From an uncultured Eubacteriales bacterium (lineage in GTDB: Bacteria > Bacillota > Clostridia > TANB77 > CAG-508), in NCBI GenBank assembly GCA_949840345.1, contig CATKWX010000003.1, positions 23,370 through 87,369 of the forward strand: DNA of 64,000 nucleotides, given 5' to 3'. A program made the translations under genes and the position numbers. The notes under the pieces were generated by a model. It was not told the DNA's origin, did no database searches, and saw only the letters and a list, made by a program, of their open reading frames with translations. The stretch's first letter is position 1. Each line of letters starts with the position of its first letter. This document shows positions 21,227-50,527 of this stretch, piece after piece.

Positions 21227-21251
21227 ATAGGAGAAAGCGAATTTTTGCTTG

Positions 21252-21360
21252 ATATATTGCGGGCGGATTTTGGGGCTCGCTTGCAAATGAATAGTGAAGA
21301 ATACAAAATTCTTCGAATTTTGATGTAGGGGCGGGACTCGTGTCCGCCCGCAAATAAATA
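21252..21360. repeat. GC-rich REP/BIME-like element cluster R1 (GTAGGGG head plus palindrome gggcgggac-tcgt-gtccgccc; module aatgaatagtgaagaatacaaaattcttcgaattttga)
   Basis: GC-rich imperfect palindromes in AT-rich DNA. Shares modules with 15 other clusters in this window. Confidence 0.75.
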
Positions 21361-21638
21361 TTACAAAAAATCAAAAATATATTTACAAATAAAACATATT
21401 AGTATATATCAAACTCGCTTCGCGAGAGTGAAGAAATAAGAGTGAATAATTAAGAATGATGGAGAATGTGTAAGAGTATAAATCAATAGCGAGTTTGTAC
21501 TCTTAACTTTTAAATATTCACTATTAATTTTTCACTAAATCTATTTACATTTAAAATATATTAATATATAGTATATAATATAAACAAAACCAAAGGAGAA
21601 AACTCAATTATGGCAAACGCTAAAACCCTTGATACTGT

Positions 21639-21652
21639 ACACACACACACAC
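21639..21652. repeat. (AC)7 dinucleotide microsatellite
   Basis: acacacacacacac lies inside a 17-codon ORF MANAKTLDTVHTHTHIM (21610-21663) that has an upstream GGAG. Confidence 0.8.
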
Positions 21653-21765
21653 ACATTATGTAGCCTAGTAAACCCAAAAAAATTATATAAAACATAGATA
21701 AACACGTAAAACCTATGTGTATTTTTAATACACATAAGATTTACGTGTTTTTTTGCTGTGCCGAA

Positions 21766-21890
21766 AACATATTACACATTGTAGGGCGGACGGCTCTGTC
21801 TGCCTGTTCTTCGGAGGCATACCCTAACAAAATATTAATGAATAATGAAGAATGAATAGTGAAAAATACAAAATTCTTCGAATTTTGAAG
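21766..21890. repeat. REP/BIME-like element cluster R2 (gtagggcggac-ggctct-gtctgcc hairpin plus aatgaatagtgaaaaatacaaaattcttcgaattttga module). Supplies the RBS of the next gene.
   Basis: Module identical to R1. Ends in gaaggaggaaaccca immediately before ATG 21902. Confidence 0.7.
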
Positions 21891-21901
21891 GAGGAAACCC
21901 A

Positions 21902-48898: not shown

Positions 48899-49090
48899 TT
48901 TTTGTTTTTGCCAATATTGTAAAATTATCTCTTTATAAAAAGTATTAACCAAAATTTAAAAAATATACATTATGAATAATGTCGAAATAATGAATATGAA
49001 ACTTTGTAATATTTCTGTAATAATATTGACACATTTGAAATAAAATGGTAAAATTTACCAGTAATAAGAAAATATGAGGAGGCCGTAAGC

Positions 49091-49600
49091 ATGTACACTA
49101 ATAAAAATATTAAAAAGGTATGTAGTTTTTGTGTAAGTGATTTACATTTAATTACTATGTTGCTTCCATATTTAAATAAAGGAATAAATGAAAGAGAAAA
49201 ATTTATAACAATATTAGAAAAAGATTTAACAAAGCAAGTAGAGTTAGTTCTATCAAGATTAACATTGAATAATGAAAGTAAAAACTATTTATTAAATATA
49301 GATTGGAACTGCAATATACTAAACAGAGAAGCAATTAAAAAAGAAATCCTTAATGGTAATAGTATAAACTTTATTATAAATGGTACAAAGGAATACATAG
49401 AAAATACAAATAGTAAATTAAATAAAATACTAGATAGTATAGAGATAGAAGGTTCAGTAAAAATAATAAATTGTTATGATATAACTAAATTAGATGACGA
49501 TATTAAAGAAATTTTAAAAACACATGATATGATACTTAACACATCTGGAGAAAAGGAGATATCAGAGGTGTTTGAAGGATACGAGAGTAAGGGCGCATGA
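49091..49600 (+). CDS. Hypothetical protein (169 aa)
   Basis: GGAGG RBS. No recognisable motifs. Stop codon embedded in hairpin gggcgcatgattgcgccc. Confidence 0.6.
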   Translation: MYTNKNIKKVCSFCVSDLHLITMLLPYLNKGINEREKFITILEKDLTKQVELVLSRLTLNNESKNYLLNIDWNCNILNREAIKKEILNGNSINFIINGTKEYIENTNSKLNKILDSIEIEGSVKIINCYDITKLDDDIKEILKTHDMILNTSGEKEISEVFEGYESKGA

Positions 49601-49668
49601 TTGCGCCCAGTGAATAATGAATGTAGGGGTCCGCGTCCTCGACGACCCGCCTAGGCGTTGCCACTTTC
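49591..49668. repeat. REP-like cluster R15 (gggcgcatgattgcgccc; gtgaataatgaat; gtaggggtccgcgtcctcgacgacccgcctaggcgttgccac)
   Basis: Fills the whole gap between convergent genes 49091..49600 and yqeK (stop 49669). Confidence 0.75.
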
Positions 49669-50226
49669 TTAATTCATTAATAACCAATTTCTAGCTAAAA
49701 TTGTATCTGTATGAATTGGTCTATTTTTTTCTATACATTCTTGTATAGTTAAGTTTAGCATATATAAAATACTAGAATCTAAATCTTTAAAAGCTAAATC
49801 TCTTATATAATCAGCCTCTTCATAAGTTCTATCTAATCCAATTCCATCACCAATAAATAATATTTTAGATAACATGTCCATATCTTCTCCGCCTGTTGTA
49901 TGTAAAGAAATCGCTTTGCACATTACATCTGAAAAGCCAAATTGCTTTTTGCAAATATCAGCTCCAATTTTTGCATGAAGTAAACCTTGAGAAGCTAGTT
50001 CAACATCATTAATAGGTATATTGTTTTCTTTGGCATATTTAATTTTTTCATCTGATGGCATTTCTTTTGCAATGTCGTGAGCTAGTCCTACTAATTTAGC
50101 AACGTCAGGATTTACATTATAATGAAGGGCTAGTTTTTCACACATATCCATCACACATAAGCTATGGTAGAAACGTTTTTCAGATAATTTTGTTTTTAAT
50201 ACATCTTTAATTTCTTCTAATTCCAT
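49669..50226 (-). CDS. yqeK: HD-domain bis(5'-nucleosyl)-tetraphosphatase YqeK
   Basis: Start at MELEEIKDVLKTKLSEKRFYHSL (AAAGGAG RBS). HD motif LAHDIAKE. Confidence 0.8.
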   Translation of the reverse strand: MELEEIKDVLKTKLSEKRFYHSLCVMDMCEKLALHYNVNPDVAKLVGLAHDIAKEMPSDEKIKYAKENNIPINDVELASQGLLHAKIGADICKKQFGFSDVMCKAISLHTTGGEDMDMLSKILFIGDGIGLDRTYEEADYIRDLAFKDLDSSILYMLNLTIQECIEKNRPIHTDTILARNWLLMN

Positions 50227-50320
50227 AAAAAATTCTCCTTTTTTTAGATGGTTATAGTAATTATAATAATATTTTTTATGCTTATTCATTATGCAATTAA
50301 ATATAATTTTAATTGCTCGT

Positions 50321-50486
50321 AATAAATATATTGCAAACGTTGTAGGGGTCGGCGTCCTCGACGACCCGCCTAGGCGTTGCTACTTTCTTTATGTATTAAA
50401 AAAGTTCGGCTTTAACAAAAAGAACCCTCAGTCTCCTTCGTCGACAGCTCCCTTGAATAAGGGAGCCAAGCCTAGGCGTTGCCATT
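50321..50486. repeat. REP/BIME-like cluster R16 (linker aataaatatattgcaaacgt; gtaggggtcggcgtcctcgacgacccgcctaggcgttgctac; gacagctcccttgaataagggagccaagcctaggcgttgcc)
   Basis: Near-identical to R15 and R5 units. Preceded by AT palindrome atgcaattaaatataattttaattgc (50291-50316), whose 17-mer also occurs at 26614-26632. Confidence 0.75.
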
Positions 50487-50527
50487 ATATATATATATTT
50501 CATAATTATATACATAGTAAATTATAA

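Follow-up and report, generated by a model that had tools for sequence, protein, structure and literature searches.

GTAG-headed hairpins of uncultured gut Clostridia are very probably REP-type elements served by RAYT transposases

Introduction

Which element fills the gaps between the genes of an AT-rich Clostridial genome with short GC-rich palindromes, and what placed it there? The question is raised by a 64,000-nucleotide stretch from an uncultured Eubacteriales bacterium (contig CATKWX010000003.1 of assembly GCA_949840345.1, positions 23,370 to 87,369 of the forward strand), referred to here in its whole length as the window, in which hairpins headed by the tetranucleotide GTAG recur at one intergenic site after another. 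A first-pass annotation, made from the letters alone, likened them to repetitive extragenic palindromic (REP) sequences and bacterial interspersed mosaic elements (BIMEs) and linked them to REP-associated tyrosine transposases (RAYTs). This reading gained support from related genomes, in which RAYT-type genes are accompanied by inverted copies of the same hairpins, the 'compound' class included. The REPtron layout known from E. coli, Pseudomonas and Stenotrophomonas is found in these relatives, and the repeat family is confined to one clade of gut Clostridia. We consider it very probable that the elements are REP-type, i.e. short non-autonomous DNA repeats that are spread and maintained by a RAYT (TnpA_REP), a single-domain HUH/Y1 enzyme encoded elsewhere in the genome, with each RAYT paralogue probably serving its own hairpin class; the window's own genome would then carry such genes.

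Results and discussion

GTAG-headed hairpins in the window

The window has a GC content of about 29.5% and contains an open reading frame (ORF) of 7027 aa at 91-21174, a second giant ORF starting at about 57.3 kb, and ordinary Firmicute genes including murA, ddl, spoIIR, spmA/B and ABC transporters. The closest homologues of its MurA are 91-97% identical and derive from gut metagenome assemblies, the named ones being metagenome-assembled genomes (MAGs) labelled 'Clostridia bacterium'. The string TGTAGGG occurs 21 times against 3.1 expected, a roughly 7-fold enrichment that none of 100 shuffles attained, and 19 of the 21 copies lie on the + strand; the leader ATATATTGCAAA, allowing at most one mismatch, is present in 13 copies (3.25 expected). 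When the 30 nt downstream of each GTAGG were folded, only the clusters already reported stood out. Mapping by exact strings yielded 26 units, all within 21325-50367, with 22 on the + strand (21 without a double-headed hairpin) and three of the four minus-strand units being partners within head-to-head pairs.

Reading of the gaps and mapping of the units revealed at least one GTAG-headed GC-rich hairpin in each of the 16 clusters listed by the first-pass annotation. Its statement that almost every intergenic gap is occupied was too generous: units are present in 15 of the 22 gaps of at least 30 nt within the unit-bearing stretch, corresponding to 26 units per 6.2 kb of intergenic DNA. The reported absence past 50.5 kb and from the giant gene was borne out, as the hairpin scan mapped no unit in 1-21324 or 50368-64000, nor inside the giant or other long ORFs, and none of the six gaps between 50.5 and 57.4 kb holds one. 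A single unit overlaps a stop codon.

RAYT-type genes flanked by the same hairpins

A tblastn search with E. coli RayT (query taken from NC_000913) identified ORFs adjoining such units in three related loci (L024, L022 and L007), and relatives with a 91%-identical MurA possess a RAYT (L022 and L024, on the contig carrying P0013). The RAYT-like ORFs encode about 150 aa and retain the HUH motif (PNHIH) and the Y-x-x-x-N catalytic motif, with H80, H82, Y135 and N139 invariant in an alignment with E. coli RayT. The relatives' proteins scored 57.7-79.2 bits with the NCBIfam model REP_Tyr_transpos versus 17-25 bits with the IS200 model, and 19-34 bits with Pfam Y1_Tnp, while the best solved structure was TnpA_REP (4ER8, E=4e-07). 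There are hundreds to thousands of homologues, several of which carry the JGI name 'REP element-mobilizing transposase RayT'. Many of those from the clade reside on contigs of 600-1500 nt, many below 1 kb, which fits metagenome assemblies breaking at flanking REP repeats.

The genes fall into subfamilies that differ in the hairpin beside them. In subfamily A (L007, P0161/L042, P0184/L043 and P0129/L044), the gene sits between two inverted copies of GTAGGGGCGATTTTAATCGCCC / GTAGGGGCGATTTTAATCGCCCGC with their GTAG heads facing outward, in four of four genomes. Subfamily B (L024, P0250/L127, P0241/L129, P0244/L130 and P0251/L125) is 40-50% identical to subfamily A and has an inverted 51-nt compound element on both sides in L127, L129, L130 and L024 (where the locus ends within the upstream copy), L125 having the upstream copy alone; this flank class occurs four times in the window, one copy being degenerate. 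A third paralogue, in L022, is located behind a GCGGGC..GTCCGC unit. This 191-aa protein (L022:3120-3695, contig CAOKHH010000001.1) has two in-frame copies of its own REP class GTAGGGGCGGGCCCTGTGTCCGCCC inside the ORF, at 3279 on the + strand and 3487 on the minus strand, which encode ..VGAGPVSAQ.. and ..RADTGPAPT.. beside the HUH motif, and it has no close homologue among the proteins retrieved. As a control, none of 41 distant metagenomic homologues (35-45% identity; 31-64% GC) showed a matched GTAG pair on both sides. Several RAYT paralogues with one REP class apiece would account for the variety of hairpin classes, a multiplicity that had been called unusual at first and that has the same ordinary account in Pseudomonas and Stenotrophomonas.

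By analogy with E. coli TnpA_REP and IS608, a RAYT would recognise the folded hairpin of the single-stranded top strand along with its 5' GTAG, cleave at a dinucleotide close by and carry the strand into another intergenic site; the binding, cutting and joining steps are modelled on work in E. coli, Stenotrophomonas and Marinomonas (PMC3333891, PMC8266576). The same cut-and-join chemistry could recombine hairpins with leader and linker modules and so yield mosaic, BIME-like clusters.

Anatomy of the units

The units follow a common frame of T-GTAG-GGG, a GC-rich stem of 7-9 bp with a loop of 3-6 nt, and CCC-G, and measure 22-29 nt, or 51 nt in the compound class. The head reads GTAG in 23 of the 26 window units, ATAG in two and GTAA in one, and it is invariant in all 34 aligned distinct 26-nt units of the clade. 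Representative units are stable as single-stranded DNA, with folding energies of -6.5 to -11 kcal/mol and z-scores of -2.0 to -5.2 relative to dinucleotide shuffles. Among the 34 distinct clade units, 92.5% of cells pair (73.3% in shuffles) and seven of nine pairs differ on both sides; as these units had been pre-selected by folding energy, which inflates the paired percentage, the covariation is to be read as diversity within a kept structure and not as an unbiased test. The compensatory base changes described in the first-pass annotation are real, for example GGGAACGACG/CGTCGTTCC versus GGGAACGGCG/CGCCGTTCC, and so is the multiplicity of palindrome classes, although the count of six was too low: the window holds at least eight stem classes, one of them the 51-nt compound element. 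The latter combines an outer GGGCAC/GTGCCC stem with an inner hairpin and is present at 35511, 45538 and 48848, with a degenerate copy at 33027. As a separate observation, a simple REP GTAGGGAACGACGCCCTCGTCGTTCC is nested in a compound REP at L043:5488-5560, between the inner hairpin and the CACTGTGCCC tail, and window positions 37619-37662 resemble this arrangement. Searches of Rfam at gathering and E<=1 thresholds returned only a tRNA-Lys in the window and no match at the elements, which are thus not a known RNA family.

About two thirds of the units are solo. Neighbouring units in the window form seven same-strand pairs versus three head-to-head pairs and one double-headed hairpin (24311-24339). 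The head-to-head arrangement noticed earlier was confirmed at 32982-33080, 45494-45588 and 48049-48117, where the partners have a common linker gATAAATATATTGCAAAnnnT of 21-22 nt. No clear tail-to-tail doublet of the REPIN type (REP doublet forming a hairpin) was found in the window, where the double-headed hairpin 24311-24339 and the adjacent 24260/24339 pair (79 nt) are the sole tail-to-tail configurations.

Two leader types occur ahead of units: type A, ATATATTGCAAAnnnT, and type B, AAAATTGTAGAGAAAAT, the second being found beside RAYT-flanking units. Conservation ends at the left edge of the leaders, indicating that they travel with the unit, and judging from this sequence pattern they may carry a cleavage site. 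The notion of one conserved linker did not hold, since the leader core ATATTGCAAA precedes, without mismatch, only six of 22 scored window units and, outside the window, about 15% of the units found independently of the scan pattern; as it stands before a minority of units, it is not a universal linker. The accessory modules described at the outset do exist but amount to merely 2-3 copies each in the window. A role of the leader ATATATTGCAAA as promoter was considered and dropped, given that the sequence upstream varies between copies, so that no -35 box travels with the leader, and TTGCAA was rejected as a promoter part in view of the missing -10 box at proper spacing. At 21252-21290, the leader motif appears interrupted (ATATATTGC-[GGGCGGATTTTGGGGCTCGCT]-TGCAAA), and the letters suggest a 21-nt GC-rich insertion into the leader with TGC repeated at both junctions.

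The units and modules of the window are as follows.

21286-21323: hairpin module AATGAATAGTGAAGAATACAAAATT-cttcg-AATTTTGA, preceding the unit at 21325
21325..21349, + strand: unit of class GCGGRC..GTCCGCC (GTAGGGGCGGGACTCGTGTCCGCCC)
21781..21805, + strand: unit of class GCGGAC..GTCTGCC, degenerate leader acatattacacatt
24208..24233, + strand: unit of class AACGGCG..CGCCGTT, leader ATATATTGCACAct, 15 nt past the stop of ORF 21902-24193
24260..24285, + strand: unit of class TCGGCG..CGACGA, degenerate 3' foot
24311..24339, no strand assigned: double-headed hairpin GTAGGGAAC..GTTCCCTAC, GTAG heads on both strands
26673..26698, + strand: unit of class AACGACG..CGTCGTT, between two minus-strand genes
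26813..26838, + strand: degenerate unit with full leader ATATATTGCAAAtgtt, weak hairpin (-6.0 kcal/mol as RNA)
27526..27551, + strand: unit of class TCGGCGTCCTCGACGA, imperfect palindrome with conserved G.A mismatch
27614..27639, + strand: degenerate unit of class TCGATGCC.ACATCGA, AATGAATAGTGAAGAATACAAAATT hairpin module ahead
32982..33006, minus strand: degenerate unit (GCGACC..GGTCGTCC-like), left of a head-to-head pair
33007..33026, + strand: head-to-head linker gATAAATATATTGCAAAatt, leader type A
33027..33080, + strand: compound unit, degenerate copy
35511..35561, + strand: compound unit, 51 nt, GTAG-GGGCAC-[CGTTTGCGGGAATACCCG..]-..CACTGTGCCC, of the class that flanks subfamily-B RAYT genes in relatives
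35599..35624, + strand: unit of class TCGATGCCCACATCGA, leader ATATATTGCAAAcatt, ending 28 nt ahead of the start codon of ORF 35653-37494
37559..37583, + strand: unit of class GCACACCGATGGTGTGC, TGAATAG/TGAATAA heptamer tract (37526-37553) ahead
37619..37644, + strand: unit of class AACGACG..CGTCGTT, leader ACATATTGCAAAtgcc, followed by the compound element's CACTGTGCCC tail
43290..43314, + strand: unit of class TCGGCG..CGACGA, leader ACATATTGCAAAcaat
44601..44626, + strand: unit of class GCGGACGCCTCTGTCCGCC; an AACGACG-class unit instead at the orthologous site in relatives
45494..45516, minus strand: unit of class GCGACCATTGGTCGTCC, left of a head-to-head pair
45538..45588, + strand: compound unit, leader ACATATTGCAAAcaat, right of a head-to-head pair
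46555..46581, minus strand: unit of the TCGGCG class, inside hairpin module GACAGCTCC..AAGGGAGCCAAG
48049..48071, minus strand: unit of class GCGACCATTGGTCGTCC, ATAG head, left of a head-to-head pair
48093..48117, + strand: degenerate unit of the AACG..CGTT class, ATAG head, leader ATATATTGCAAAtgat
48848..48898, + strand: compound unit, type-B-like leader ttttgtatagagaaatat; orthologous copy in L002, none in L001
49587..49608, + strand: REP-like hairpin GTAAGGGCGCATGATTGCGCCC, one mismatch from the relatives' GTAGGGGCGCATGATTGCGCCC units
49623..49648, + strand: unit of class TCCGCG..CGACGA, followed by module CCTAGGCGTTGCC
50342..50367, + strand: unit of class TCGGCGTCCTCGACGA, leader ATATATTGCAAAcgtt, followed by CCTAGGCGTTGCT, between two minus-strand genes
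50443-50470: uninterrupted copy of hairpin module GACAGCTCC..AAGGGAGCCAAG

At its 3' end, ORF 49091-49600 runs into the hairpin at 49587-49608 and takes its TGA stop codon from the hairpin loop. At the same site, the relative L001 has a different, terminator-like hairpin with a T-run, and the final residues (..KGA*) are retained. The units at 26673 and 50342, lying between two minus-strand genes, are antisense to them.

Distribution and turnover in relatives

The leader-plus-GTAGGGG pattern ATATATTGCAAANNNNGTAGGGG was searched in one genome per species of 185,579 species, a set outside which the window's own genome falls. All 37 stretches that matched (37/37) belong to MAGs of uncultured gut Clostridia, which originate from rabbit, goat, sheep, Hadza and other human samples and include Clostridium sp. 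CAG:452. The matched loci, together with separately fetched syntenic and RAYT loci, provided 172 further units of many stem classes, in which the GTAG-GGG..CCC-G frame is constant and the inner stem varies (TCGCCG/CGGCGA, TCGCTG/CAGCGA, GCGGGC/GTCCGC, GCGATT/AATCGC and others). These relatives contain 19 tail-to-tail doublets with heads mostly 57-79 nt apart, which is the REPIN arrangement, and six head-to-head pairs with a spacing of 20-24 nt. The elements are hence spread through a clade and are not peculiar to the window, a possibility that had been kept in mind at first. In viral contigs, the leader-plus-GTAGGGG pattern gave five chance matches that all lacked a hairpin downstream, and the compound element had no match, so that the elements are not phage-borne.

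Three syntenic loci could be aligned to 33-53.5 kb of the window, and comparison of the orthologous gaps, as proposed in the first-pass annotation, revealed both presence/absence polymorphism and class replacement. L001 (GCA_947632145) is 72-88% identical at the nucleotide level across the aligned blocks, with gene order kept and short gaps, and has a single unit in 21 kb compared to about 14 in the window counterpart. The lineage of L002 and L131, about 89% identical over most of the aligned region, has the compound element upstream of spoIIR in common with the window, lacks units at the murA-lactamase gap, and carries an AACGACG-class unit in the spmA-spmB gap where the window has one of the GCGGAC class. 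Taken together, these comparisons indicate that sites acquire elements, lose them or exchange one for another over the time in which species diverge. Across the gaps, divergence was too great for insertion boundaries or a target to be read from the alignments.

Strand bias

The predominance of one strand in the window has a counterpart in the related loci, where solo units are sense to co-directional flanking genes in a ratio of 50:6. Outside the window, solo units lie on the inferred leading-strand sequence at 93:17, and overall about 85-89% are co-oriented with both genes and leading strand. At 4-fold sites of the window's + genes, the coding strand has a GC skew of +0.18 and an AT skew of +0.37, compared to -0.27 and -0.07 in minus-strand genes; these skews identify the + strand as the G- and A-rich leading-strand sequence, i.e. 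the lagging-strand template, and this assignment holds window-wide, including the minus-strand gene block at 38.9-56 kb. Units flanked by lagging-strand genes are split about 3:3, and those in convergent or divergent gaps 13:7 (p=0.26). As genes are mostly co-oriented with replication and informative contexts are few, replicative and transcriptional causes are not separated by these counts.

Single-strand transposition at the fork is known for IS608 (PMC3333891, PMC6006769) and would leave a strand bias of this kind. We infer that replication is the likelier cause, an interpretation rather than a result, and that the RAYT would act on the lagging-strand template; any use of the hairpins by the host is likewise put forward as conjecture. 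If the bias does track replication and not transcription, the clade might offer a first natural record of RAYTs depositing REPs at the replication fork, which we regard as a rather doubtful prospect, and in that event the 5' leaders ATATATTGCAAA and AAAATTGTAGAGAAAAT could mark the cleavage/joining sites of this RAYT group. In proteobacteria, the symmetry of BIMEs and REPINs conceals any such bias, and the abundant solo, strand-biased units provide a way to test RAYT action on the lagging-strand template.

Alternative explanations

The sense orientation of solo units beside co-directional genes would also be expected if the hairpins were host RNA elements, namely 3'-end mRNA stabilisers, attenuators or 5' protective stem-loops that arose or persisted at each site through selection on transcripts, with the RAYT link being incidental. 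Many units lie directly past stop codons or 15-30 nt ahead of ribosome-binding sites, and one provides a stop codon where a relative has a terminator-like hairpin, all of which suits such a role. However, near-identical sequences of 26-51 nt, always with the same unpaired GTAG, turn up in different species and at loci unrelated to one another, contrary to what evolution in situ predicts; the hairpins are not followed by a T-run; the window units 26673, 26813 and 50342 are antisense between minus-strand genes; and RAYT genes are flanked by units in inverted orientation. A function at the RNA level may exist as a secondary, exapted role but is unlikely as the origin of the elements, and we consider this explanation as a whole improbable. 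Slightly less probable still is that the hairpins are ends or relics of autonomous IS200/IS605-type insertion sequences, and the ~150-aa genes selfish transposases that move with their flanks rather than a domesticated RAYT acting on repeats in trans. The proteins do fall within the Y1_Tnp superfamily (two of three score 28-34 bits in Pfam), one relative genome has at least two paralogues (L022 and L024), and many homologues are found on very short contigs, as are repeated insertion sequences. In IS200/IS605 elements, both end hairpins lie on the same strand, whereas the hairpins flanking the clade's genes are inverted with heads outward, as in a REPtron. Moreover, the REP-transposase model scores far above the IS200 model, the hairpins are far more numerous than the genes and also stand by themselves (the window has 26 units but no gene), and no tnpB-like partner was called beside the genes of subfamily A (L042-L044) or subfamily B (L127-L130). 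At L125/L126, the strand opposite the subfamily-B gene carries an overlapping 246-aa Y1_Tnp ORF.

Being short, intergenic, palindromic and mosaic, the units also recall miniature inverted-repeat transposable elements (MITEs) of a DDE transposon or attC-like recombination sites of integrons. This origin is hardly credible: the unit is a single hairpin of 22-29 nt with a GTAG tag on one side, terminal inverted repeats of 15-30 bp and target-site duplications are both missing, and neither an integrase nor a DDE transposase was detected among the ten window ORFs scanned against Pfam, whose sole transposase-family match was a weak DEDD_Tnp_IS110 inside a BcrAD/DUF2229 gene. The RYYYAAC/GTTRRRY cores that characterise attC sites are not present in the units. 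Several observations nevertheless weigh against a REP population mobilised by RAYTs. The 64-kb window contains no RAYT gene according to tblastn with E. coli RayT and clade RAYT queries, the scores of the RAYT-like proteins (57.7-79.2 bits) fall under the curated NCBIfam cut-off of 80 bits, and no cognate RAYT for the commonest window classes, TCGGCG..CGACGA and AACGACG..CGTCGTT, was present among the loci fetched. Most window units are solo and same-stranded, unlike those of E. coli, where 84 of 584 REPs are single (PMC3333891). The nearest relatives share only about 89% DNA identity, so that neither a clean empty/filled site pair nor a cleavage dinucleotide was definable, and mobility would follow from turnover between species rather than from direct observation.

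Other features of the window

Several further observations were made in the window. Near-identical, strong promoter-like modules of about 55 nt (TTGACAA-17-TATAAT) are duplicated at 38457-38512 and 38786-38842 and found again at 43480-43560 and 43840-43900; they face short minus-strand ORFs for small hydrophobic peptides, e.g. MTKYDIIFLVIVLLLGKQWGKGKGRR near 38560-38690, and may represent small toxin or membrane-peptide cassettes. The spoIIR gene at 48160-48952 is split into overlapping ORFs (48160-48492 and 48398-48952), where relatives have one intact 212-aa gene, which reflects either a frameshift, a pseudogene or an assembly error. A (CA)7 microsatellite is located in the 17-codon ORF MANAKTLDTVHTHTHIM (21611-21660), between the two leftmost clusters, R1 and R2. 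The second giant ORF (~57400-64000) exceeds 2100 aa, runs off the window and has recurring GGLVGY-type motifs; at the 4-fold sites of this ORF and of the one at 91-21174, A outweighs T very strongly (skews of +0.53 and +0.56 for the two giant ORFs), and neither contains a REP unit.

Comparison with known systems

The closest parallel is the REP/BIME and TnpA_REP (RayT/YafM) 'REPtron' of E. coli (Ton-Hoang et al. 2012, PMC3333891; Messing et al. 2012, PDB 4ER8). Both systems place GTAG 5' of an imperfect GC-rich palindrome, are extragenic and reach high local density, and one class here has a conserved stem mismatch (G.A of TCGGCG/CGACGA) like that of E. coli REPs; the transposase gene between inverted REPs and the alignable HUH and Y..N catalytic residues are further likenesses. 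In contrast, the host is a Clostridial genome of about 29% GC and not a gamma-proteobacterium, about two thirds of the units are solo and strongly strand-biased compared to 500 of 584 E. coli REPs in BIMEs (PMC3333891), the linkers (ATATATTGCAAA, AAAATTGTAGAGAAAAT) are unrelated in sequence, and the clade protein shares only 30% identity with E. coli RayT, whose C-terminal tail (about 30 residues) is missing from it. With the REPIN-RAYT systems of Pseudomonas and Stenotrophomonas (Nunvar 2010, PMC2817692; Nunvar 2013, PMC3686654; Bertels & Rainey 2011, PMC3116915), the clade shares several REP classes within one genome that are each matched by a RAYT paralogue flanked by it, tail-to-tail doublets in relatives with heads about 57-79 nt apart, and occupied sites that differ between species. 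It departs from them in that window doublets are rare and head-to-head rather than tail-to-tail, and in that one cognate element is not a simple palindrome but a compound hairpin of 51 nt that encloses a further stem-loop. The clade RAYTs are closer to broadly distributed RAYT groups than to Groups 2 and 3, and their nearest named homologues, at no more than 44% identity, are Bacteroidetes 'RayT' proteins and Haemophilus HI_0554.

The stem-loop with an unpaired GTAG at one end, the division into families by stem sequence and the association with a tyrosine transposase also agree with the GTAG-tagged REP superfamily of Di Nocera et al. 2013 (PMC3733652), a survey that covers Proteobacteria, Cyanobacteria, Chloroflexi and the PVC superphylum and mentions no Firmicutes or Clostridia. 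IS200/IS605 elements (IS608, ISDra2) likewise have a Y1 HUH enzyme, sub-terminal hairpins that are recognised on a single strand, and a guide tetranucleotide on the 5' side, and their preference for the lagging-strand template would, if shared, explain the strand bias described here; they differ in that the gene-flanking hairpins of the clade are inverted and not parallel, the repeats are non-coding and outnumber the gene, and no fixed target tetranucleotide is identifiable. Text searches of the literature turned up no account of Clostridial REP or REPIN populations; the only mention of Clostridia encountered says of one RAYT group that it 'is also found' in them (PMC5581495). As the relatives encode a matching RAYT flanked by the same hairpins, the kind of system is known and the bacterial group is new for REPs, with some variant traits that set these REPs apart, namely mostly solo and strand-biased units, a 51-nt compound cognate REP and leaders of their own. 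REP/RAYT systems have so far been studied almost wholly in proteobacteria, and the clade adds to them REPs of many classes, densely packed in the very AT-rich genomes of uncultured gut Clostridia, together with at least two RAYT subfamilies that each go with a hairpin of their own. Such repeats break metagenome assemblies and can be confused with terminators or small RNAs in annotation, and the 51-nt compound REP broadens the range of known RAYT substrates.

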